Of a stretch of 64,000 nt of DNA, positions 6,160 through 50,046 are shown piece after piece. Every line of letters starts with the position of its first letter. The first letter of the stretch is position 1. Under the pieces are notes generated by a model. That model was given only the letters and a program-made list of their open reading frames with translations. It was not told the origin of the DNA and ran no database searches. The DNA is from Eubacteriales bacterium. GTDB lineage: Bacteria > Bacillota > Clostridia > Oscillospirales > CAG-382. The translations under genes were made by a program, and so were the position numbers. The stretch covers positions 139,863-203,862 of the forward strand of contig JAZRTY010000033.1 of assembly GCA_045652245.1 (NCBI GenBank). The letters are read 5' to 3'.

Positions 6160-6330
6160 GGCAGAGTAGAAATGAATGCGTTAAGTGCTGCAAGTACGGG
6201 GAGTTGACGAGCAGACGAAGATTTATCGCGGTGTTCATTTCGCATCCCGCTGTCGCATATGTCCTTTTTCGTAATGCAGATTTATGGAAAAACGATGCGG
6301 CGTATTATAATTTTATTGCCGCATTCTTTT
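6160..6330 (+). promoter_or_regulatory. THF (tetrahydrofolate, folT-motif) riboswitch aptamer (6160-6254) with terminator expression platform (6295-6330)
   Basis: GGCAGAGUAGAAAUGAAUGCGUUAAGUG...GGGGAGU...ACGAAG...CGCGGUGUUCAUUUCGCAUCCCGCUGUC matches the conserved blocks of the THF-I aptamer: AGAGUAG, GCGUUAAGUG, GGGAxGU, ACGAAG, CGCGGUG, GCAUCCGCU. P1 is GGCAG/CUGUC. Downstream hairpin ATGCGGC/GCCGCAT is followed by TCTTTT. Confidence 0.85.
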
Positions 6331-13138: not shown

Positions 13139-13410
13139 TTGCAATGATTTGCAATTTATGCTATACTTAAAAAGTATACGGCAAAGAAAAAGAGTGTATG
13201 GTACAATGGCAATGTTACAGAGAATAAACCATTTGGTGAGAGGTTTACATTCAGTGCTATATGTTTTCGCTTTGGAGCTTTTTCGGTGAATAGTTAGCCG
13301 AAGACGCATGCACGGCGTTATCGTGCTTGAGTGTTCTATACCATGTATAGAAAATTTGGGTGGTACCACGGCATTGTCGTCCCTTGCAATTTTTTGCAAG
13401 GGATTTTTTT
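13139..13410 (+). promoter_or_regulatory. T-box leader (Phe) with promoter and terminator/antiterminator, controlling pheST
   Basis: Promoter TTGCAA-17-TATACT (13139-13167). Stem I elements AGAGA and GGUGAGAG. T-box sequence AAUUUGGGUGGUACCACGG (13353-13371). Terminator GTCCCTTGCAA/TTGCAAGGGA plus T7 (13379-13410). Possible UUC specifier at 13266-13268, with low certainty. Confidence 0.85.
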
Positions 13411-13442
13411 GTCAAAATAAATAAATTTAAGGAGTGAAAAAA

Positions 13443-14462
13443 ATGAGAGATCAACTTCAAAAAATAAAAAACGAAGCTATCGAAGCTTTTTTAAATGTAA
13501 AAAGCGGCACAGAGCTTGAAAGCTTGAAGATAAAGTATCTCGGAAAAAAGAGTGACCTTGTAGCTGTTCTTCGCGGAATGGCTGCACTTTCACCGGAGGA
13601 AAGACCTGTTATGGGTCAGCTTGCAAACGACGTCAGAAGTGCAATTGAACAAGCTTTTGAACAAGCAAATGCTGAAGTATCAGCAATTGAGGAGGCAAAA
13701 AAAATCAGTGCCGAAAAAATCGACGTAACTCTCCCCTCTAAGAAATGTACAAGTGGAAAACCTCACCCACTTTCAAGAGTACAGACTGAAATCGAAAATA
13801 TATTTATCGGAATGGGATTTTCGATAGCAGATGGTCCTGAAGTAGAATATGATTATTATAACTTCACAGCACTCAACACCCCCGAATTCCACCCTGCACG
13901 TGATACACAGGATACATTCTATATAAATCCAAAGGTACTGCTTCGTACTCAGACCTCCTCAGTTCAGGTACACGTAATGGAGAAGCAGCAGCCTCCGATA
14001 AGAATTATCTCCCCCGGACGTGTATATCGTTCTGACGCAGTTGACGGCACACATTCACCAATGTTCCATCAGGTTGAAGGTCTTGTTGTTGACAAGGGAA
14101 TCACAATGGCAAACCTTAAGGGTACACTTGAAACCTTTGCAAAGGAAATGTTTGGTGAGGAAACAAGAATTCGTTTCAGACCCCATCATTTTCCGTTCAC
14201 TGAACCCTCATGTGAGGTTGACGTTTCCTGTTTTGTTTGTGGTGGTAAGGGCTGCAGACTTTGTAAGGGTGAGGGCTGGATAGAAATTCTTGGTGCCGGC
14301 ATGGTACATCCGAATGTACTTCGTGGTTGTAATATTGACCCTGATGTATATTCCGGATTTGCTTTCGGTATGGGTGTAGAAAGAGTTGTTATGAAGAAGT
14401 ACAATATTGACGATATGCGACTTCTTTATGAGAATGATGTAAGATTCTTATCTCAGTTCTAA
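13443..14462 (+). CDS. pheS: phenylalanine--tRNA ligase alpha subunit
   Basis: Typical PheS sequence ([33 protein letters not shown]). AAGGAG RBS 9 nt before the ATG at 13443. Confidence 0.95.
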
Positions 14463-14500
14463 TAATCTTTTAATTGTTGTCTTGCGACAAGGAGGTTCAA

Positions 14501-16891
14501 ATGAATTTATCTATGAAATGGCTCGCAGATTATGTCAATCTTGAAGGCATCTCAGCCAAGGATTACTGCGACCGTATGACTGATACAGGTTCAAAGGTGG
14601 AGACCTTTGATATACTTTCGGAAAAAATTGAAAATGTAGTAGTCGGAAAGCTGCTTTCAGTTGAAAAACATCCTGACAGTGACCACTTACTTATTTGTAT
14701 GGTTGATGTAGGACAGACAGAGCCTGTACAAATCGTAACCGGTGCACAGAACGTAAAACCCGGTGAATATGTCCCTGCTGCTCTTCACAAGTCACTTCTT
14801 CCAGACGGAACAGTTATCAAAGCCGGAAAGCTTCGTGGTATTCCTTCAAATGGTATGCTCTGCTCAATCGGGGAGCTTGGACTTGATGAACACGATGTTC
14901 CGTATCAAGTTGAAGATGGAATCTGGCTCATTCAAGAAGACGGTATAAAGCCCGGTGACGATATTCGTCCTCTTATAGGCTACGATGATACAGTTGTTGA
15001 ATTTGAAATCACATCAAACAGACCGGATTGTCTTTCAATTATAGGTCTTGCAAGAGAATCAGCAATTTCCTTTAATAAGGAATTTAAAGCTCCGACTCCT
15101 GTTGTTAAGGGCTGTGGTGATAATGATAAAATAAGCAATTACCTCTCAGTTGAGATAAAATCCCCCAAGCTCTGCCCAAGATATTGTGCAAGAGTTGTAA
15201 AGAACGTAAAAGTCGCTCCATCACCGAGATGGCTCCGTGAAAGACTCCGTAATTGTGGTGTAAGACCTATAAACAATATCGTTGACATCACAAACTACGT
15301 AATGCTCGAATACGGTCAGCCAATGCACGCATTTGACTATAACTACCTGAAGGGTGGTAAAATTATAGTAAGAAATGCAGAAAAAGACGAAAAAATTACT
15401 ACACTTGACGAGATAGAAAGAAATCTTACAGAAGAAATGCTTGTAATTGCAGATAACGAAAGAGCAGTTGCTGTTGCAGGCGTTATGGGTGGCGAAAATT
15501 CCGAAATTCAGAATGATACAACCACAATTGTATTCGAATCTGCAAACTTCTTTGGTCCGTCAGTCAGAATTACTGCACGCGACCTCGGAATGAGAACAGA
15601 TGCAAGCGGTAAATACGAAAAGGGACTTGATGCAGAAAACTGTCTTCCGGCAATTCAGAGAGCCTGCGAGCTTATTGAAATGTTAGGTGCAGGTGATGTT
15701 GTCGACGGTATTATAGATGAATATCCGACACACGCAACACAAGCCAAAATCCCATTTGACAGCGAGAAAATCAATGCTTTCCTCGGTACAGATATTTCCG
15801 AGCAGTTTATGCTTGATACTCTTGCAAAGCTTGACGTTGAGTACAAGGACGGAATTCTCACTCCCCCATCTTATCGTGCAGACCTTGTTGAAATGCCTGA
15901 TATTGCCGAAGAGGTTGTAAGAATTCACGGCTACAACGATATTCCCTCAACAAGATTCAAGGGAGAAGCTGTCAGTGGTGGCAGAACAGAAAAGCAGAGC
16001 TTTATTGCTGACCTTGATTCACTTATCCAGCACAAGGGTATATTTGAGGTACAAACATATTCATTTATAAGCCCCAAGTGGTATGATAAAATCGGACTTG
16101 CGCCCGATAGTGAGCTTCGTAATTCAATTGTTATTTCAAATCCTCTCGGCGAGGACACCAGCATCATGAGAACAACAGCAGTTCCGGGCGTTATGGAAGC
16201 TCTGTCTAATAACAGACGACACAGAAACAGTAAGGCTGCTATTTATGAAAAAGCAAAGATTTATATTCCAAACGAAGAAACAGGACTTGCAACAGAGGTC
16301 TATACAACAGTAATCGCAGCATACAACACCTTTGATTTTTATGAGCTTAAGGGTATTTGCGAGGAAATTCTTGAAAATGCAGGAATTTACGACTACGATA
16401 CTGTTTCTCTGACAACAAACCCGACATATCATCCTGGAAGATGTGCACAGATTATAAAGGAGGATAAGGTGCTCTTCACACTTGGTGAATTGCATCCCAA
16501 TGTTGTTAAGAACTACGACTTTGACTGTCCTGTATATGTTGCAGAGGGTGATACTGAAGCAATCTTTGATATGCGTAATGCAAATCGTGAATATAGCCCC
16601 CTTCCGAAATTCCCGGCATCAACCCGTGACCTTGCTTTTGTTTGTGATGATTCTCTTGAAGCAGGAGTACTCAAGAAAGCAATTAAAAAAGCAGGTGGTA
16701 GTCTGCTTGAAGATGTTGAAGTATTTGACGTATTCAAGTCTGATAAGCTTGGTGAAGGCAAAAAGTCAATGGCATACAGCCTTGTGCTCAGAAACAAGGA
16801 AAAAACCATTTCCGATGAAGAAGCAGATGCAGTAATTAAAAAGGTGCTAAAAGCTCTTGAAAAGGATTTTGGAGTAACACTTCGTGCATAA
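14501..16891 (+). CDS. pheT: phenylalanine--tRNA ligase beta subunit
   Basis: ~796 aa with tRNA-binding OB domain, B3/4, B5 and FDX-ACB domains. AAGGAGG RBS before MNLSMKWL. Confidence 0.95.
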   Translation: MNLSMKWLADYVNLEGISAKDYCDRMTDTGSKVETFDILSEKIENVVVGKLLSVEKHPDSDHLLICMVDVGQTEPVQIVTGAQNVKPGEYVPAALHKSLLPDGTVIKAGKLRGIPSNGMLCSIGELGLDEHDVPYQVEDGIWLIQEDGIKPGDDIRPLIGYDDTVVEFEITSNRPDCLSIIGLARESAISFNKEFKAPTPVVKGCGDNDKISNYLSVEIKSPKLCPRYCARVVKNVKVAPSPRWLRERLRNCGVRPINNIVDITNYVMLEYGQPMHAFDYNYLKGGKIIVRNAEKDEKITTLDEIERNLTEEMLVIADNERAVAVAGVMGGENSEIQNDTTTIVFESANFFGPSVRITARDLGMRTDASGKYEKGLDAENCLPAIQRACELIEMLGAGDVVDGIIDEYPTHATQAKIPFDSEKINAFLGTDISEQFMLDTLAKLDVEYKDGILTPPSYRADLVEMPDIAEEVVRIHGYNDIPSTRFKGEAVSGGRTEKQSFIADLDSLIQHKGIFEVQTYSFISPKWYDKIGLAPDSELRNSIVISNPLGEDTSIMRTTAVPGVMEALSNNRRHRNSKAAIYEKAKIYIPNEETGLATEVYTTVIAAYNTFDFYELKGICEEILENAGIYDYDTVSLTTNPTYHPGRCAQIIKEDKVLFTLGELHPNVVKNYDFDCPVYVAEGDTEAIFDMRNANREYSPLPKFPASTRDLAFVCDDSLEAGVLKKAIKKAGGSLLEDVEVFDVFKSDKLGEGKKSMAYSLVLRNKEKTISDEEADAVIKKVLKALEKDFGVTLRA

Positions 16892-38354: not shown

Positions 38355-38885
38355 TTATTTTATTAAATTATGCTTTTGAAATTTTCTGATTTTTCTAACT
38401 TCGATAATTTGCAGAATAAACAAAACAATGTGCCCGACAAATGTAATTTGTGAAACAAAAAATGCAATTCCCACAAGAATCTCATTCTGTATCAAGGTAA
38501 AGAAAAAATACGCACCACCTATATCACCAAAATCCGGCAGGAATAAATATGCGACAAGATAAGAAATCATAAACATGAGATTCATTATTTTAATTTGGGG
38601 TGATATATCTGTATATTTTACAAAAAACATATTCGACACAAAAAATACCGTAGCGTGAATTACAGGAATCAAAAGCCACAACATAATAACACGGAACCAA
38701 CCGATATTTATAAATGAAGCGGCAGTTAAAAGCATTATAGCTAGTGTTGTAAATACTTTTCTTTTAGGAATTTGAGATTTCCTTTGCAGAGCTTTTATTA
38801 TATTGATGATCAAAAAAACTAATGAAAAGACGGCTATCCCCATCCAAACAAACAATATAAATTTCATTCCAATTATATCCATCAT
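38355..38885 (-). CDS. hypothetical integral membrane protein
   Basis: 176 aa with ~5 TM helices. No family recognised. Confidence 0.55.
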   Translation of the reverse strand: MMDIIGMKFILFVWMGIAVFSLVFLIINIIKALQRKSQIPKRKVFTTLAIMLLTAASFINIGWFRVIMLWLLIPVIHATVFFVSNMFFVKYTDISPQIKIMNLMFMISYLVAYLFLPDFGDIGGAYFFFTLIQNEILVGIAFFVSQITFVGHIVLFILQIIEVRKIRKFQKHNLIK

Positions 38886-39154
38886 TTATGTTCTCCTATT
38901 TAGAAATTCACGAATCAAACATATAGTTATAGTAATACATCCTATGATTTTCAGTATCATAAATTGCTATTGAAAAATTATAAGAGTTTCTTTCAAACAA
39001 TTCAGAATCATCACTCTTATCTTTACTCTTTGCGTGCCTATACTCAAAAAAATAATATCCCTTTTCTACTAATCTTAAATCAACTCAGAATAAAAAATCA
39101 CAACTGTAGATAAGCAAGCATATTATATACAAAAAATATTTATAGGTGAATTAT

Positions 39155-39637
39155 ATGCTCAACAATTCTATACTCAATATAAAAAAAAGACCTTATGCAT
39201 ATGCAAAAATAAAAGGAAGCCATGACTATCCAAGTATTAACGGCATTGTCTACTTTTATAAAGTGCAGGCAGGTGTGCTGGTTTCAATTCAACTAAATGG
39301 GTTACCTGTATCAGATGACACCTGTAAAAAAACAATATTTGCCGTTCACATTCACAGTGGAAGCGGTTGTACAGGCAACAATACCGATCCATTCGCAGAT
39401 GCCTTAACACACTATAATCCCTATGATTGTGCTCATCCATATCATGCAGGCGACCTGCCACCTATATTTGGTGCCGGCGAACTTGGCTTTTCAGTATTTC
39501 TGACAAACCGATTTTCAATTGAAGAAATAATAGGAAAAACTGTTATAATCCACTCTGCTCCCGATGATTTTACAACTCAGCCGTCCGGCAATTCCGGAAC
39601 AAAAATCGCTTGCGGTGTAATTTTATCGGTATATTAA
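39155..39637 (+). CDS. Cu/Zn superoxide dismutase family protein without an evident signal peptide
   Basis: The ligand pattern is retained: VHIHSG (H-x-H), ALTHYNP...AHPYHAGDLP and VIIHSAPDD. AGGTGA RBS 6 nt before the ATG at 39155. Confidence 0.75.
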   Translation: MLNNSILNIKKRPYAYAKIKGSHDYPSINGIVYFYKVQAGVLVSIQLNGLPVSDDTCKKTIFAVHIHSGSGCTGNNTDPFADALTHYNPYDCAHPYHAGDLPPIFGAGELGFSVFLTNRFSIEEIIGKTVIIHSAPDDFTTQPSGNSGTKIACGVILSVY

Positions 39638-39679
39638 GAGATCTTAAAATGATTGTCGCTTAATATACGTTTTTTAATT

Positions 39680-39707
39680 AAAAAGACTGTATATTCTAGA
39701 TGCTAAT
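39680..39707 (+). repeat. intergenic repeat family 1, copy A
   Basis: AAAAAGACTGTATATTCTAGATGCTAAT, 59 nt 3' of the cupin stop. Confidence 0.8.
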
Positions 39708-39765
39708 CATTTTGGCATTAAAACCCCTGAAAAATTTGCATTTCAATTATCCCATAATAAAGTTG

Positions 39766-40110
39766 CTATTCAACAACAATAAGAGCGATAAATACGAGCA
39801 TTTCATCACCGGTATTTTTGATAGAATGACCTTGACCTGACGGAGTAAATGTCACCATTCCCGGAGCCACTTCAACCTCGTTTCCGTTATCATTATAGAT
39901 GCCCTGTCCTGAAAGAATAAAAAATGTTTCGCTTTCCCCAACATGCATATGATATTCCACTTCTTCACCCGGTTTTACCCGAATAAAAGAGAAAAGTCGG
40001 ACTTTTGGATTCCACGCATCAAAATCAGCAAGATTTGTCTTGAGCATTTTTTCTTTGCCATCATTGTTTAGCTTTGTTTGTGTTTTTAGTTGTTCTATTT
40101 TTTTGTACAT
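39766..40110 (-). CDS. cupin domain protein
   Basis: 114 aa with cupin motifs (PGEEVEYHMHVGESETFFILSGQG...GQGHSIKNTG). Confidence 0.8.
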   Translation of the reverse strand: MYKKIEQLKTQTKLNNDGKEKMLKTNLADFDAWNPKVRLFSFIRVKPGEEVEYHMHVGESETFFILSGQGIYNDNGNEVEVAPGMVTFTPSGQGHSIKNTGDEMLVFIALIVVE

Positions 40111-40168
40111 ATAAAAATCTCCCTAAAATCAAAAATTCTATTTTTACTTGAAGTACTTATTCCGACAA

Positions 40169-40199
40169 ATTTCGACATCTCTTTTATACTCGAGTCAAG
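40169..40199 (+). repeat. intergenic motif family 2, copy 1 (TTCGACA-N11-CTCGAGTCAAG)
   Basis: ATTTCGACATCTCTTTTATACTCGAGTCAAG, in the EamA-cupin spacer. Confidence 0.5.
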
Positions 40200-40213
40200 A
40201 CTGGAATAAATAA

Positions 40214-41086
40214 TTATTTACTTTTCTCTTTTTCTTTCAACTGAATTAATATTCCTAAAATAATAATTATTAATCCCACTAATGAGTTTAGCTTTATTGC
40301 TTCATTTAAGAATAAATATGTCCACACAAGCGATAAAAACGGTGTTATGTATGCAAGATTTGATACCTTCTCTGTTTTTCCGTTTTCAAGCGCCATAATC
40401 CAAAAGGTATTTGCAATTGCCACCGTAAAAATTCCGTTCCACACAAATCCAAATATCTGATTGGTGGCAGGCACAAATATATCTCCATTAATTAAATTAA
40501 CCAATGTTGTAAATATAAAAGTAGCAAAATAGCTTACCATAAGTGTCATACTTTTATTATAATTCATTTTTTGATTAAGAGCCGTGAATATACCATATGA
40601 AACAGCTCCAAGAATACAACAAAGTACTCCAAAGAGCATACGACCGTTAAGATCATTTATGTCTCCGCCTACAACAACAATCACACCAAAAAACGAAATA
40701 AAAATAGCGATAAGTTTTTTTGCTGTAAGTTTTTCTTTTAAAATAATACACGCAAACAACACACTCATTATCGGCCACAGATAATTAATGATAAACGCCT
40801 GTGATGCCGGCAGAATATCTGTTCCGGCATAATAGAACAAATAATAAAATATGGTACTGGGAATTCCTATTGCAACCATAATAATATAGTCTTTTAATTT
40901 ATAATTTTTATATTTTTTAAAATTCCCAAGACAAATATTTAACAAAAGCAAAAACAATCCTGCAATCAATGAATTCATCCACAGAAGCTGCATATTATTG
41001 AGCTCTCGAAGAAGAATTTTGCAAGTTGTCGCAACTGTTGACCAGCAAAAGATAGACACTCCCGCATAAAAATATGTTTTTTTCAT
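40214..41086 (-). CDS. EamA/DMT family transporter
   Basis: 290 aa with 10 TM helices and the two-EamA-repeat architecture. Confidence 0.8.
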   Translation of the reverse strand: MKKTYFYAGVSIFCWSTVATTCKILLRELNNMQLLWMNSLIAGLFLLLLNICLGNFKKYKNYKLKDYIIMVAIGIPSTIFYYLFYYAGTDILPASQAFIINYLWPIMSVLFACIILKEKLTAKKLIAIFISFFGVIVVVGGDINDLNGRMLFGVLCCILGAVSYGIFTALNQKMNYNKSMTLMVSYFATFIFTTLVNLINGDIFVPATNQIFGFVWNGIFTVAIANTFWIMALENGKTEKVSNLAYITPFLSLVWTYLFLNEAIKLNSLVGLIIIILGILIQLKEKEKSK

Positions 41087-41129
41087 TAAAACATTCCCTC
41101 CTATGTAATTATATTACAGTTTTCAATGT

Positions 41130-41155
41130 AAAAAGACTGTATAATCTAGATACCA
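41130..41155 (+). repeat. intergenic repeat family 1, copy B
   Basis: AAAAAGACTGTATAATCTAGATACCA, 44 nt upstream of the EamA start codon on the opposite strand. Confidence 0.8.
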
Positions 41156-41170
41156 CTCTTTTTTTAGTGA

Positions 41171-41212
41171 TTGCGAGGCATAAGGTTTAGATGCAAACCT
41201 TTTTGGTCGCAA
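41171..41212 (+). other. nested hairpin with T-tract between repeat copies B and C
   Basis: TTGCGA-GGCATA-AGGTTT-AGATGC-AAACCT-TTTTGG-TCGCAA. The inner 6 bp stem is followed by TTTTT on the plus strand, and the outer 6 bp stem closes it. Confidence 0.45.
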
Positions 41213-41271
41213 GTTCATATTAAGATAGAACCAAAAACTTCGCACAACAGAACCATCCCCTTGTGTTATTC

Positions 41272-41304
41272 TATAAAGACTGTATAATCTGGATGGCAAT
41301 GTTT
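41272..41304 (+). repeat. intergenic repeat family 1, copy C
   Basis: TATAAAGACTGTATAATCTGGATGGCAATGTTT, 36 nt 3' of the TIM-barrel gene stop. Confidence 0.8.
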
Positions 41305-41339
41305 ACTAGAACAAACTTCACTTACGCTTTTATCAATCA

Positions 41340-42245
41340 TTATTCTTCATAAACATTATATGAAGAAAGAATATATTTTGAAATTTTATAAAGTAATGAA
41401 AGGGCGTCTCTCTTAAGTTCTGTGTTAATGTGCGAAAGACTTCCGTTCTCACGCCCGCGGTCAAACTTGAAAAAGCAATCCGCCTCCAAAGTGAAATAAC
41501 CTGAAAATCCTGATTCAATAAGCCCTCTCATAAGTGAATCATAATCTGCTGTTCCAAGGAAAGGTGCTATATGCTCGTCTCGCATACCATTATTATCATG
41601 CACATGTATTGCTTTTAAGTTATTTCCCATTTCCATAATTTCGGAATAGTGGTCTATTTCATCCATATGGGCGTGTCCTACATCCCATGCTGCGCCGAAC
41701 AAAGGATGTTTTATATAGGTGACAAAATCGTTTAAGTCCTTTCCGGTTATAGGGAAAAAGCACTTTTCGGGACAATGCCTTATGGTTGTGTTTTCAAAGA
41801 GAATATTGACGCCGTTTTCCTCCATTGCCGGAATAAGCGCTCTGAAAAATGGTTCATTAGCTTTAAAATATAACTCTTTGTCATCGGGATATTTTATCTC
41901 TTGGAAAAATCCCGAATGGATTACCATATTTTTAATACCAAGAATACCACACGCCTCAATGGAACGAATAGTGGCTAAAATTCCTTTTTTCGCACCCTCT
42001 CCTCTTATATCGCAATCGGGTGCATGCGCTTGCACAAAAGAAAAACCAAGACTTTCCGCAGTAGCTTTCGCTTCAAAAATTTCTTCCTTCCAGTTATCCA
42101 TCATAAAAGGATGGTTCGGTGTTCTCACCACATTATAAAAGCTATAATCAAGGTAGTTAAATCCGGTACCCTCGTACGCTTCAATAGCTTTTGCCGGTTT
42201 TTCGGTATATGAATACATTTCTCCAATTGTGGTTGCAATTTTCAT
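41340..42245 (-). CDS. xylose-isomerase-like TIM barrel protein (sugar phosphate isomerase/epimerase family)
   Basis: 301 aa with an AP_endonuc_2-type pattern (VQAHAP, MVIHSG, LFENT, WDVGHAHM, IHVHDN, TLE). Confidence 0.75.
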   Translation of the reverse strand: MKIATTIGEMYSYTEKPAKAIEAYEGTGFNYLDYSFYNVVRTPNHPFMMDNWKEEIFEAKATAESLGFSFVQAHAPDCDIRGEGAKKGILATIRSIEACGILGIKNMVIHSGFFQEIKYPDDKELYFKANEPFFRALIPAMEENGVNILFENTTIRHCPEKCFFPITGKDLNDFVTYIKHPLFGAAWDVGHAHMDEIDHYSEIMEMGNNLKAIHVHDNNGMRDEHIAPFLGTADYDSLMRGLIESGFSGYFTLEADCFFKFDRGRENGSLSHINTELKRDALSLLYKISKYILSSYNVYEE

Positions 42246-42318
42246 ATAATCTTCTCCTTTATACTCATTTTGAAGCAGTGCTCCATTCCATACTTACATC
42301 TCTATTTCATATCTTTTA

Positions 42319-42351
42319 TATAAAGACAGTATAATCTAGATGCCAATGTTT
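42319..42351 (+). repeat. intergenic repeat family 1, copy D
   Basis: TATAAAGACAGTATAATCTAGATGCCAATGTTT, 37 nt 3' of the hydrolase stop. Confidence 0.8.
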
Positions 42352-42387
42352 TTTATCAATACTTCATGTCAAATTAGAAACAATAAT

Positions 42388-43125
42388 TTACTTTTCGGTT
42401 TCTTTTATAAATTCACATATGATTTTTCCAAACTCTTCTGTTTTTGAATAATGACAGTGTGTGCCATTCATCAGCCGATAATATATTTTACTCTCATCAT
42501 ATTCAAAATGCTTTAATGTAGAAATTGTTAATTGTGTTTGTTCATATCGATTTTTCATATCGTTATCCGAAACAATAAACATCATAGGCGGATAGCTAAC
42601 AGCCTTTCCAATATGATATATCGGTGCCGCCTCATCAATTATTACTCTTCTGGAATCGATTCCACGTTCCCTGAGCACATTAAAATGTGTTGTTGGCTGA
42701 CCGGCATCATGAATATATCCTTTTATTACACCTGAAGGTAACTTATATGGAGATAAATATTTGTCATCAAAGCAAAGCATCATTGAAAGATAACCACCGG
42801 CACTGCTTCCTCCAATATATATACCTTCGCATTTTCCATACTCCTCAATATTTTTATATATCCAGGCTACCGCTTCGGCTGAATCGCAAATGAACTGCGG
42901 ATACATAGCTTGCGGATACATCCTATAATTTATTGACACAAATGCTATGCCCTGACTCGCTACATATTCACCAACCGCACTCATGCGTGATTTATCACCG
43001 TGTTCCATTCCGCCGCCGTGCATATACACAAACACTTTAAAAGCATCATTATCCGGAAGATAAATATCAAGATACTGTTCAGGATGTTTAGCTTTACCAT
43101 AACAAATGTCACCTATAAATTTCAT
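42388..43125 (-). CDS. alpha/beta hydrolase (esterase/lipase-like, HGGG type)
   Basis: VFVYMHGGGMEHGD oxyanion motif and GGSSAGG nucleophile elbow. 245 aa. Confidence 0.75.
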   Translation of the reverse strand: MKFIGDICYGKAKHPEQYLDIYLPDNDAFKVFVYMHGGGMEHGDKSRMSAVGEYVASQGIAFVSINYRMYPQAMYPQFICDSAEAVAWIYKNIEEYGKCEGIYIGGSSAGGYLSMMLCFDDKYLSPYKLPSGVIKGYIHDAGQPTTHFNVLRERGIDSRRVIIDEAAPIYHIGKAVSYPPMMFIVSDNDMKNRYEQTQLTISTLKHFEYDESKIYYRLMNGTHCHYSKTEEFGKIICEFIKETEK

Positions 43126-43179
43126 AATAAAATCTCCTTTATATAGTTTTTTAAATTATTTCTTTCTGCATTTTGCATT

Positions 43180-43209
43180 ATTCGACAATCTTACTAGGCT
43201 CGAGTTAAG
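43180..43209 (+). repeat. intergenic motif family 2, copy 2 (TTCGACA-N11-CTCGAGTTAAG)
   Basis: ATTCGACAATCTTACTAGGCTCGAGTTAAG, in the WYL-hydrolase spacer. Confidence 0.5.
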
Positions 43210-44226
43210 TTAAGAACAAAATTCAATCGCTGATTTACAAACATTTATGTATTCCTCACGCACAGCATCCGGGCCTTCTATAACAATAAGATTATTAAGT
43301 CCGAAAATCCAGGAATAAAACTGAGGACTGATTGCCACCTTAACAGTAACAGTACAATAACCATCCTCCTTCGGAACAATAAACACGTCCCTACCAAACC
43401 TGTCAAATATAATTCCGACAGCATCAATTTTGCATTTCAAAGTAACCTCGTCGGTTTCTCCCGAAAACATATTGAAATTCTTGTTTGAATATTCTGCGCT
43501 GTCAAAATTAAGCTCTCTTGCAGGTCTTGAAATTGCCTCTTGGCAAAGACTGACACTTTCCATTTTGTCAACCCGGTAATGCTTAAGCTTCCCGCTAAAA
43601 TCATCATATGCCACAAGGTAATATTTTTCATCATCCCAAATAAGAGAAATCGGATTTACAAAATAGAGATTACCTTTGTTTCTGTAAAGCTTGTTTTTGC
43701 GCACATCCCAGGTATAATATTTAAAAGAAATCTGCTTCTTTTCGGATATCCCCCTGTAAATGCTGTCTATATTGTAGTACACGTTCTCATTTGGACTTTT
43801 TGCACGTCCAGCTAAGATAATTTCGTGTTTTAGCTTTGAACGTTCCCATATAGATGTAAGACTGCTGAATTTTTCAATCAGTTTCATACTTTTATTCTCG
43901 GAAATAAATTTCGCAGATTGAATAATATCAGTCAGCATCTTTATCTCGGAAACCTCAAACTGTCGCTCGCCGATATAGTATCCTCCCCTTGTACCCTTTT
44001 CGGAAATTATATCCACTCCGAACAGTTGCAACGCCTCAATGTCATCATAAATACTTTTTCTTTCAGCAGAAACTCCATACGAGGCAAGCTTTGATATAAG
44101 TTCACTTGCGTTGAGTGGATGGCTCTCGTCTGTTTCTTCAAACAGAATTTTGTAAAGATACAGAATTTTAAGCTTTTGATTACTCGACCTTGAAATAAGT
44201 ATCACTCCAATCAATAAATGTACCAA
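43210..44226 (-). CDS. WYL domain transcriptional regulator (N-terminal wHTH, WYL, C-terminal WCX-like domain)
   Basis: HTH region KLKILYLYKILFEETDESHPLNASELISKL...IYDDIEAL. WYL region ISLIWDDEKYYLVAYDDFSGKLKHYRVDKM. The true start is probably a few codons inside the track ORF. Confidence 0.8.
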   Translation of the reverse strand: MVHLLIGVILISRSSNQKLKILYLYKILFEETDESHPLNASELISKLASYGVSAERKSIYDDIEALQLFGVDIISEKGTRGGYYIGERQFEVSEIKMLTDIIQSAKFISENKSMKLIEKFSSLTSIWERSKLKHEIILAGRAKSPNENVYYNIDSIYRGISEKKQISFKYYTWDVRKNKLYRNKGNLYFVNPISLIWDDEKYYLVAYDDFSGKLKHYRVDKMESVSLCQEAISRPARELNFDSAEYSNKNFNMFSGETDEVTLKCKIDAVGIIFDRFGRDVFIVPKEDGYCTVTVKVAISPQFYSWIFGLNNLIVIEGPDAVREEYINVCKSAIEFCS

Positions 44227-44431
44227 TTAACGGTCATCTGTGTGTAGATTATACCATATATTCCCTTGCTAATTGTAAACAATCCAAAAATTTTTTATAA
44301 ATAGATATAATATTTCTTGACAAATAAAAATATATATGATAAAATAATTTGCCGCATGATAAGGGTATCAAATTTTACCTTTGGTAAAAACCCGATTTCA
44401 GCGAGTTCATAATGAAAGAGAGGTGCTTTTC

Positions 44432-49970: not shown

Positions 49971-50046
49971 TGGTCGGAATGACAGGATTCGAACCTGCGA
50001 CATCTTGGTCCCAAACCAAGCGCGCTACCAACTGCGCTACATCCCG
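49971..50046 (-). tRNA. tRNA-Pro (anticodon UGG), CCA encoded
   Basis: Minus strand reads CGGGATGTAGCGCAGTTGGTAGCGCGCTTGGTTTGGGACCAAGATGTCGCAGGTTCGAATCCTGTCATTCCGACCA. Folds as a cloverleaf with acceptor CGGGATG/CATTCCG, anticodon loop TTTGGGA and T-loop GGTTCGAATCC. Confidence 0.93.

Follow-up and report, generated by a model that had tools for sequence, protein, structure and literature searches.

We focus here on a short intergenic repeat, and on the genes that it borders, in a 64,000-nt stretch of contig JAZRTY010000033.1 from an Eubacteriales bacterium; this whole stretch is referred to as the window. The repeat occurs four times (copies A to D) in an array which, read along the gene strand, runs from a regulator gene of the WYL type through a hydrolase gene with copy D, a TIM-barrel gene with copy C, a unit lacking any open reading frame (ORF) in which a variant module, V2, is followed by copy B, and an EamA-cupin pair with copy A. 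The genes around the copies are all on the minus strand, and beyond copy A lies a convergent gene for a Cu/Zn superoxide dismutase (39146..39637, plus strand). On the gene strand the repeat is longer than first described and consists of an A-tract followed by TTGGCATCYAGATTATACAGTCTTTATA, a 28-nt core for which we use the name V1. Apart from its four copies, the window holds two short linkers and one V2 module. From comparisons across genomes we judge it fairly probable that V1 is an unstructured, sequence-conserved junction of 28-36 bp which closes the 3' side of exchangeable units that all point in the same direction.

All four copies are intergenic and share the plus-strand orientation in which the sequence-only reading of the window had described them. 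No fifth copy exists in the window, as had also been proposed: a degenerate 24-mer with up to three mismatches matches only at 39682, 41132, 41275 and 42322. With 0 matches in 100 shuffles, chance accounts for none of the four, and relaxing the search to a 28-mer with up to six mismatches added no further site in the 64 kb. Copy A ends 58 nt before the stop codon of the cupin gene (39766), copy C 35 nt before that of the TIM-barrel gene (41340) and copy D 36 nt before that of the hydrolase gene (42388), all three genes being on the minus strand. The predicted lack of a significant hairpin was borne out as well, the DNA fold of the V1 consensus reaching -2.1 kcal/mol (z = -0.67) and copies A, C and D folding no better than shuffles. 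Other details fared less well. The string TTTTATCAAT, given as a further similarity of copies C and D, is common to both, although it sits at unlike offsets in the two. The claim of a textbook extended -10 element had to be given up, as the TG directly abuts the hexamer and does not form TGnTATAAT; TGTATAAT is a perfect -10 hexamer in copies B and C, the TG is missing from copy D, and copy A has TATATT. An 11-bp terminal inverted repeat in V1 (AAAAAGATTG/CAGTCTTTATA) was considered and dropped, the middle of its left arm varying freely.

A scan of genome contigs with the core, one genome per species, returned at least 120 exact matches. Among those listed, 9 are chance matches inside genes of unrelated phyla. 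The remaining 111 loci share a longer, nearly invariant core (TATAAAGACTGTATAATCTRGATGCCAA) and come from about 94 metagenome-assembled genome (MAG) assemblies of uncultured gut Clostridia, labelled Oscillospiraceae, Ructibacterium, Congzhengia, Ca. Aphodoplasma, Monoglobaceae and Eubacteriales. Multi-copy loci number 46 and hold two to six copies each, in one orientation in every locus. The copies are clustered, with at least 175 in 0.84 Mb of motif loci versus 0 in 1.16 Mb around obg from 80 related genomes. The sequence-only reading had described the repeat as confined to one gene cluster, and had named its occurrence at many sites in the genome as a reason to abandon a locus-specific element. 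Confinement is true within the window, whereas beyond it the motif is a dispersed family of many genomes, which counts against a locus-specific element. A phage or plasmid origin was rejected on the lack of any motif match in 2.9 million viral contigs and in the plasmids of PLSDB. The same applies to a known RNA element: Rfam 15 gave no match in 39600-42450 at E<=5, and at gathering score there was none in the repeat region of the window or in 12 array loci. The genome comparisons thus far described, together with the gene neighbourhoods below, show V1 to be a real repeat and a large family specific to one clade, placed at unit boundaries.

The junction in which V1 sits is built from a few recurring parts. 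V1 nearly always lies between two genes on the strand opposite to the motif, about 45 nt past the stop codon of one and about 38 nt ahead of the start codon of the next; with the motif on the plus strand, 86/101 left neighbours and 91/97 right neighbours are minus-strand genes. Along the gene strand, the linker opens with an element termed T3, which starts right at the upstream stop codon (stop, then TTTTT-AGTCCTAACTTGATATGAAC), continues after about 8 variable nt with V1 (AAAAAGATTGGCATCYAGATTATACAGTCTTTATA), and closes with LD (TAAAGATTGTCGAA-N3-TGTCGAAAGGAG-N7-ATG), the 5' leader carrying the ribosome-binding site of the next ORF. Linker length is bimodal: in short linkers T3 is joined straight to LD, and in long linkers a module of about 40 nt is inserted, either V1 or one of the variants V2 (GCATCTAAACCTTATGCCTCGCAATA) and V3. 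The ORFs are packed flush against the T3 and LD adaptors, the stop codon ending 7-8 nt ahead of the T3 core in 34/108 and the ATG following 11-14 nt past LD in 55/134. In 50 copies unbiased by the search pattern, every core position but three is conserved at 80-99%. In linkers of the short kind, T3 (AACTTGACA) and LD (TGTCGAAAT) form an imperfect inverted repeat (about 11/16) whose arms lie some 15 nt apart on either side of the junction, an arrangement that we take to resemble a serine-integrase att site. Because the left part of V1 (TAAAAAGATTGGCATC) matches the start of LD at 11-12 of 16 positions, V1 may be a diverged duplicate of the right half-site.

Homology between loci breaks at the edges of the V1 core. 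No pair of copies is alike on both flanks; 11 pairs have just the right flank in common and 6 just the left. In blastn comparisons of the loci, 151 alignment ends gather at V1, 71 at the leader of short linkers and 21 at V2. A search for pairs of adjoining blastn alignments revealed the gain or loss of a unit: locus L050 reads unit-V1-(LD-339-aa gene-T3)-V1-gene Z, and L057 reads unit-V1-gene Z. The two differ by exactly one unit of 1106 nt, a YeiH-type gene, and the alignments overlap by the 30-nt V1. By flank identity, no case of A-V1-B versus A-V1-X-V1-B was found among 279 junctions. The identical 339-aa protein occurs in three contexts, among them behind a hydrolase and behind three recombinase genes, with three different following sequences. 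Likewise, the best homologues of the window units lie in separate MAGs next to differing neighbours (hydrolase, L099; TIM barrel, L025; EamA, L017), and comparison with related loci, the check proposed at the outset, has the flanked accessory genes carrying their linkers into new contexts. Of the roles first suggested for the repeat, that of a cassette-boundary scar is the one upheld, in that the motif bounds independently assorting units and one precise unit gain or loss falls at it. The locus comparisons show that units are gained, lost and re-assorted at V1/linker junctions. The best reading of V1 is that of a cassette-boundary module in a cassette system for which we found no description; a literature search returned neither the core sequence nor any account of such arrays in Clostridia. 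Two markers of the breakpoint were of no help. An A/G polymorphism in TCTRGAT first seemed linked to the upstream unit and thus usable as a crossover marker, but is uninformative since L050/L057 and L072/L078 contradict that link. Truncated V1 copies (half-sites) number 5, too few for defining the breakpoint.

Other rearrangements were seen in the same set of loci. In L222 (1452-1560) and L223 (1456-1546), compared with L220 (2572-2700), the left half of V1 (...GGCATCCAGATTATGCAG) is joined to the interior of uvrA at a shared TGCAG. The join is present in two independent metagenome assemblies and implies a circle or tandem duplication of about 4.4 kb. It would correspond to a break within the V1 centre, and a microhomology-mediated rearrangement would look the same. 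Separately, a stretch that is continuous in L068 (2708-2715) is interrupted in L088 (reverse strand, about 1230-1510) by an unrelated 282-nt insertion bounded by 22-nt inverted repeats (GCAGTTGCGTTAGTATCCGAAC / GTTCGGATACTGACGCAACTGC), a separate element resembling a miniature inverted-repeat transposable element (MITE).

The cargo of the arrays is diverse. A sample of 100 unit proteins, with a median length of 159 aa, covers 91 Pfam families, the commonest being DUF559 and WapI-type immunity proteins (4/100 for the latter). Units appear to have been recruited from normal genes, since TIM-barrel homologues outside arrays (68-85% identity) have ordinary promoters and terminators of their own and no linkers. 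DUF559 proteins, which have a Vsr-like endonuclease fold, are encoded by the commonest unit gene, found in 13 loci (e.g., L003:6009-6400, L046 and L096) and bracketed by GC-rich hairpins; the hairpin 5' of the gene is a canonical intrinsic terminator in antisense orientation (CCTCCCTT-loop-AAGGGAGG-CTTTTTT). Two families of ORF-less units, rich in repeats and hairpins and with no Rfam match, sit directly between tandem V1 copies (L013:6451-6660, L037:7174-7400 and L085:1498-1700; L042:1381-1660, L057 and L077:1891-2160). One has ATGAATAATGAA-type repeats and the other has ATATCGA spacers between hairpins such as GAATTC-GCAA-GAATTC. These units are possibly small RNAs.

Table 1. Features of the window array on the window's own coordinates, and serine recombinase genes at other loci (L-numbers)
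Feature	Coordinates	Strand	Remark
V1 copy A (A-tract + core)	39679..39713	-	closes the array after cupin; no gene beyond on the gene strand
Cupin_2 gene	39766..40110	-	second ORF of the EamA-cupin unit
Short linker without V module, EamA/cupin	40159..40213	-	T3 (TTATTTATTCCAGTCTTGACTCGAG) joined to LD (TATAAAAGAGATGTCGAAATTTGTCGGAAT)
EamA transporter gene	40214..41086	-	88.5% nucleotide identity to L017; homology stops at ORF borders
V1 copy B	41129..41165	-	from pattern searches
V2 variant module (AAAAAGGTTTGCATCTAAACCTTATGCCTCGCAAT)	41170..41204	-	directly upstream of copy B on the gene strand
T3 element of the ORF-less unit between C and B	41213..41237	-	
V1 copy C	41272..41304	-	same 3' flank as the TIM homologue of L025
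Xylose-isomerase-like TIM-barrel gene, a unit	41340..42245	-	93% nucleotide identity to L025, other neighbours there
V1 copy D	42319..42354	-	from pattern searches
T3 element right after the hydrolase stop codon	42362..42387	-	
BD-FAE/alpha-beta hydrolase gene, a unit	42388..43125	-	86% nucleotide identity to L099; V1 precedes it there
Short linker, WYL/first unit	43162..43221	-	T3-like sequence, then LD (TAGTAAGATTGTCGAAT...)
HTH-WYL-WCX regulator gene, resident, array head	43210..44226	-	start codon uncertain
Promoter-like TTTACA-N17-TGGTATAAT upstream of WYL	44248..44279	-	
Serine recombinase genes, three in tandem	L221:744-5604; L224:6689-11554		DUF6870 gene precedes
Serine recombinase sets	L024:3-1220; L019:1415-3671		directly upstream of the conserved promoter module

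The features of the window array are collected in Table 1. The promoter-like sequence upstream of the WYL gene is probably the entry point for sense transcription into the array. A look-up of contigs by encoded protein had no entry for the exact TIM-barrel protein of the window. The ORF-less unit between copies C and B (41156-41271) comprises a leader-like remnant, T3 and V2 and resembles a cassette missing its ORF; an 80% identical stretch is present in L076. The superoxide dismutase gene is inverted relative to the array, and its homologue in L043 is an ordinary unit in the array direction. A gene for a 176-aa membrane protein (38355-38885, minus strand) without a Pfam match has homologues in 7 other array loci, adjoining V1 where this was checked (L001 and L007); the window gene has its own terminator and no linker. 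Unrelated to the array are the window's Rfam matches at gathering score, a THF riboswitch (6160-6254), a T-box leader (13175-13387) and a tRNA gene (49974-50046).

The origin of the array can be read from the six closest relatives (Obg 84-92% identical). They keep the spoIIA genes, a WYL gene beside rplU and the order rplU-prp-rpmA-obg, and their WYL orthologues are 54-64% identical. Within 10 kb these relatives have no copy of the motif, and downstream of WYL they have no V1, V2 or linkers; what follows there is one unrelated gene with a terminator, or other genes. Genome comparison shows the window array as a lineage-specific insertion downstream of a resident WYL gene. A foreign base composition of the array was rejected, its GC content resembling that of the flanks. 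At the first junction, a T3-like half-site (43197-43221) extends over the stop codon of the WYL gene and the three codons before it. The C-terminus of the protein is unlike that of the orthologue in L121, a close relative, as though the 3' end of the gene had been exchanged when the array was inserted. Around obg, close genomes often differ by gene-sized indels of 0.8-1.05 kb (L135/L137 versus L140, 11281-12331; L144 versus L145; L146 versus L147; L179 versus L183/L184), and those loci contain no V1 or V2.

Whether the repeat serves regulation or transcription has to be weighed against its being a cassette boundary. The four repeats had been proposed as operator sites for the adjacent WYL regulator. 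A WYL-WCX gene does head the window array, and such genes also adjoin strings of accessory genes in one direction in L206 (18506-19495) and L008 (5642-6622), which may be coincidence or may reflect a recurrent link of WYL regulators with variable regions. However, a WYL homologue is present in just 1 of 120 motif-bearing loci (among the matches listed) and the six relatives retain the orthologous gene without the motif; for these two reasons the operator role is rejected. There is also no copy in the WYL promoter region, and we give this role next to no credence. A promoter function deserves more thought, and the two strands would serve it about equally well. In the canonical copies, hexamers placed as in sigma-A promoters, which have their -35 and -10 elements 16-18 nt apart, are present on both strands. 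On the plus strand, V1 would be an antisense sigma-A promoter firing into the 3' end of the upstream unit, silencing or insulating it, with the -35 drawn from the TTCGACA repeats of LD and placed 18 nt from TATAAT. Canonical copies read TCGACA-N18-TATAAT (5/6 and 6/6 hexamer matches), the geometry persists in V3 despite a different spacer (TCGACA-N18-TG-TACAAT), V2 has TAAGGT at an unchanged spacing, and TCGACA-N17-TATGAT is found in short linkers. In addition, V1 is present after the last gene of arrays, as in window copy A, where a sense target is missing. In the window, copies A, B and C nevertheless lack a usable -35, and the TG is not at the position of TGnTATAAT. A promoter scan flagged copy D alone on the plus strand (TTCATA-18-TATAAT) and a different match on the minus strand (TTGATA-17-GATTAT), the copies being weaker than consensus. 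The terminator-like hairpins inside arrays, 18 antisense versus 7 sense, seemed to favour antisense transcription, but most of the antisense ones belong to one repeat family beside DUF559 units and we set their orientation aside as evidence. On the gene strand, V1 would be an optional "mobile promoter" (A-tract, TTGGCA, 17-18 nt, TATA[TG][TA]), long linkers giving a unit its own transcription and short ones meaning co-transcription. The sense-strand sequence, A-tract-TTGGCA-N17/18-TTATAT or TATA[GT][TA], lies between the 3' element and the leader: V modules sit exactly between T3 and LD, about 38 nt before the ATG, and V1, V2 and V3 all have the A-tract ahead of the -35-like TTGGCA. Hairpin-rich ORF-less units begin directly after V1, the module beside the recombinases described below has an unambiguous sense promoter, TTGCAA-N17-TGATATAAT, before T3, and near-identical promoters are known to be reused ahead of genes that are unrelated (PMC3575422). 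The hexamers are mediocre, though (TTATAT, TATATA; GTGGTA...TTTTAC in copy B), and conservation of the core is lowest at the first T of TTGGCA. Nor is there a gene downstream of copies A and C, and the conserved spacer is left unexplained. In the antisense direction, too, positions outside the hexamers are as conserved as those within, and since all core positions are uniformly conserved the hexamers cannot be the whole story. We regard an antisense promoter as possible yet doubtful, and an identical degree of reserve applies to the sense promoter.

Returning to V1 as a cassette boundary, the machinery that might move the units is suggested by the 339-aa gene, which in one context directly follows three tandem genes for large serine recombinases, with the domains Resolvase, Recombinase and Zn_ribbon_recom confirmed. 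A search with this set found the same genes in L024 and one recombinase in L019. In ten loci a recombinase set is followed by a common module of about 250 nt, comprising an outward consensus promoter (TTGCAA-N17-TGATATAAT), a hairpin, TAGTAGGTCCTATTATTCACTGTTC and the T3 half-site CCTRACTTGACACGAGC. Eight aligned recombinase loci diverge completely right after CCTRACTTGACACGAGC, into different units; one locus continues there with V1 and three (L221, L024 and L228) with LD. This succession of recombinase, promoter, presumptive attachment site and variable units is, as these loci present it, the layout of a capture platform. In L224, a further serine recombinase gene (13271-14824) and a fragment lie downstream, suggesting tandem accretion of elements.

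These observations can be assembled into a mechanism. Every junction consists of T3 at the stop codon, an optional V module, and LD as the leader and ribosome-binding site of the next ORF. Exchange would be catalysed in trans, most plausibly by a large serine recombinase set of the kind seen in other genomes directly ahead of the promoter module that ends in T3, or alternatively would occur by RecA recombination across short identity. V1 may also contribute sigma-A-type promoter activity in one direction or the other, in which case each unit would bring transcription signals for its neighbour. In its fullest form, which we put forward tentatively and hold to be less probable than its being wrong, V1 together with T3/LD would serve gut Clostridia as double-stranded attachment sites in a gene-capture system analogous to the integron, recombined in trans by large serine recombinases. 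Single ORFs and small non-coding units would be packaged between standard 3' and 5' adaptors and inserted, excised and re-ordered, and the home locus of the recombinase would consist of recombinase genes, an outward promoter, a T3 half-site and variable units.

Several observations weigh against V1 as a cassette boundary and against the exchange proposed for it. Short linkers without V1 also act as assortment junctions, so V1 is not required for exchange; the clean indel was found just once, in L050/L057; and all of the evidence was computed from MAG sequences. Efficient V1 x V1 resolution is hard to reconcile with the persistence of tandem V1 copies 40-314 nt apart, and the uniform conservation of the core is fully explained neither by a promoter nor by a simple recombination core. 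Most arrays are surrounded by ordinary chromosomal genes in the same direction, with no recombinase or transposase within 8 kb, and 30 ORFs of the window are housekeeping genes with no recombinase among them. Close homologues of the third recombinase gene were retrieved from only nine further loci, and within arrays, a second subfamily of the promoter module is present where recombinases are absent. Typical mobile-element genes lie upstream of the recombinase sets, and for this reason the recombinase loci may just as well mark one end of a mobile element for which the junction is simply a target.

Integrons serve as the model of how single genes are captured, and to our knowledge how cassettes become so tightly packaged is still unknown. 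Here, a clade of gut Clostridia has arrays of single genes between standardised adaptors, with units common to genomes in different contexts. If the capture system is real, it would be an independent solution to gene capture, the serine-recombinase counterpart of the integron, and would account for some of the turnover of accessory genes in gut bacteria that are abundant but uncultured. Since a gene can be compared in captured and uncaptured form, the origin of cassettes would become tractable, and genome engineering would gain short sequence-defined sites, possibly along with new serine recombinases. Should only the promoter function prove right, the family would still be an unusually clear case of portable expression modules. 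The integron-like layout lies in a phylum where true integrons are essentially absent, Firmicutes having been without complete integrons in a survey (PMC4889954).

Two further explanations draw on known repeat families. In a Xer site, arms of 11 bp for XerC and for XerD, in partial dyad symmetry, flank a 6-bp spacer. V1 has this length of 28 bp, and its TATACA centre with flanking CTAGA resembles the XerC arm and spacer of Bacillus subtilis dif, at 14 of 22 positions against an approximate dif sequence. V1 could then be a dif-like site used by host XerC/D, as in pdif modules and Xer-exploiting elements, which would fit with the lack of a dedicated recombinase nearby and with the break inside the V1 centre, at TGCAG, in L222/L223. 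However, the V1 arms match at 5/11 positions with no similarity to a XerD arm, tandem copies persist, and the copies of all 46 multi-copy loci are direct repeats, unlike the sites on the two sides of a dif module, which face opposite ways (PMC6449649); we consider a Xer site very improbable. Alternatively, T3-(V)n-LD would be a non-autonomous BOX- or MITE-like element inserted in short intergenic spacers, the shuffling of neighbours being a by-product of homologous recombination between dispersed copies. Pneumococcal BOX is modular, boxA-(boxB)n-boxC (PMC3049150), and the build of the linkers with 0-3 internal modules is of that kind. The imperfect inverted repeats of T3 and LD would suit such an element too, and insertion into short operon spacers would automatically give tight packing. 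Against this stand the lack of a stable fold and of any target-site duplication seen, the sharp peak of the stop-to-T3 distance at 7-8 nt, the movement of flanked accessory genes with their linkers into new contexts and the absence of a linker beside TIM-barrel homologues outside arrays. No gene pair was found both with and without linker or V module. An inserted element of this sort is unlikely, if less so than a Xer site.

The systems closest to the V1 arrays are integrons and clusters of attC sites lacking integron-integrases (CALINs), composite islands of the staphylococcal cassette chromosome (SCC), Bacteroidales rAID-1, the dif modules of Acinetobacter and BOX-type repeats. On the computed evidence V1 is shown to be neither an attC site, a repetitive extragenic palindrome (REP), an Rfam family nor a WYL operator. 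BOX and mobile promoters are likewise intergenic, with a modular A-(B)n-C build, possible effects on expression and near-identical sequence before unrelated genes (PMC3049150, PMC3575422). Unlike BOX, V1 linkers have no stable structure, are strictly co-oriented with the flanking genes, lie flush against stop codon and ribosome-binding site, and are linked to the presence or absence of the genes that they flank. Regarding REP or bacterial interspersed mosaic elements and MITEs, which are marked by a stable palindromic hairpin or by terminal inverted repeats plus a target-site duplication, our searches of the linkers found no fold, target-site duplication or module-only insertion polymorphism. 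In Acinetobacter, 28-bp pdif sites bound small shuffling accessory modules with no dedicated recombinase gene alongside (PMC6449649, PMC13141974). They have recognisable XerC/XerD arms, alternate in orientation and are plasmid-borne, whereas V1 copies are chromosomal direct repeats without a XerD arm.

SCC composite islands have Ccr large serine recombinases, with direct repeats at the element boundaries and tandem accretion, and a serine-recombinase att site spans about 40-50 bp with imperfect dyad symmetry around a central crossover. The V1 arrays share with SCC the candidate serine recombinases, the direct repeats at boundaries and the tandem accretion, and the SCC att site overlaps the 3' end of a resident gene much as T3 overlaps the WYL stop codon. 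They differ in that their units are single genes of about 0.5-1.5 kb and not 20-60 kb, in occupying many chromosomal loci, in the modular T3/V/LD junction and in the three recombinase genes in tandem. The gut Bacteroidales rAID-1 arrays of small accessory genes have repetitive intergenic sequences 'reminiscent of integrons' together with an adjacent XerD-family tyrosine recombinase, immunity cargo and skewed GC (10.1101/471110). This is in contrast to the V1 arrays, with their mixed cargo, unremarkable GC and no tyrosine recombinase present.

As single-stranded DNA, an attC site folds by virtue of its imperfect palindrome (R''-L''...L'-R'), the cores of which are RYYYAAC and GTTRRRY. T3 contains YYTAAC but has no GTTRRRY partner, and RNAalifold gave no consensus structure for 39 short and 40 long linkers on both strands, with mean z-scores of -0.2 to -0.8; an attC-like or REP-like structure was dismissed on these grounds and because the folds are no better than shuffles. 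Neither was an IntI-type tyrosine recombinase found. A phmmer search with E. coli XerD (an approximate query sequence) against the 1347 ORFs of 120 loci, each limited to 8 kb, and the window gave nothing at E<1, and 81 flanking genes yielded 178 ordinary chromosomal families and no Phage_integrase family. The candidates are instead large serine recombinases, transcribed in the array direction, and the V1 junctions are conserved in sequence and carry leader and ribosome-binding-site sequences. What the arrays do share with integrons and CALINs is the same-direction layout of mostly single, diverse and tightly packed ORFs, the repeat at the 3' end of each unit including the last, independent assortment with a precise gain or loss of a unit (L050/L057), the many arrays without a recombinase nearby, and some loci with the order recombinase, promoter, site and variable units. 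As V1 departs from the defining features of each family that could be tested, it is best placed as a variant of the gene-cassette-array kind.

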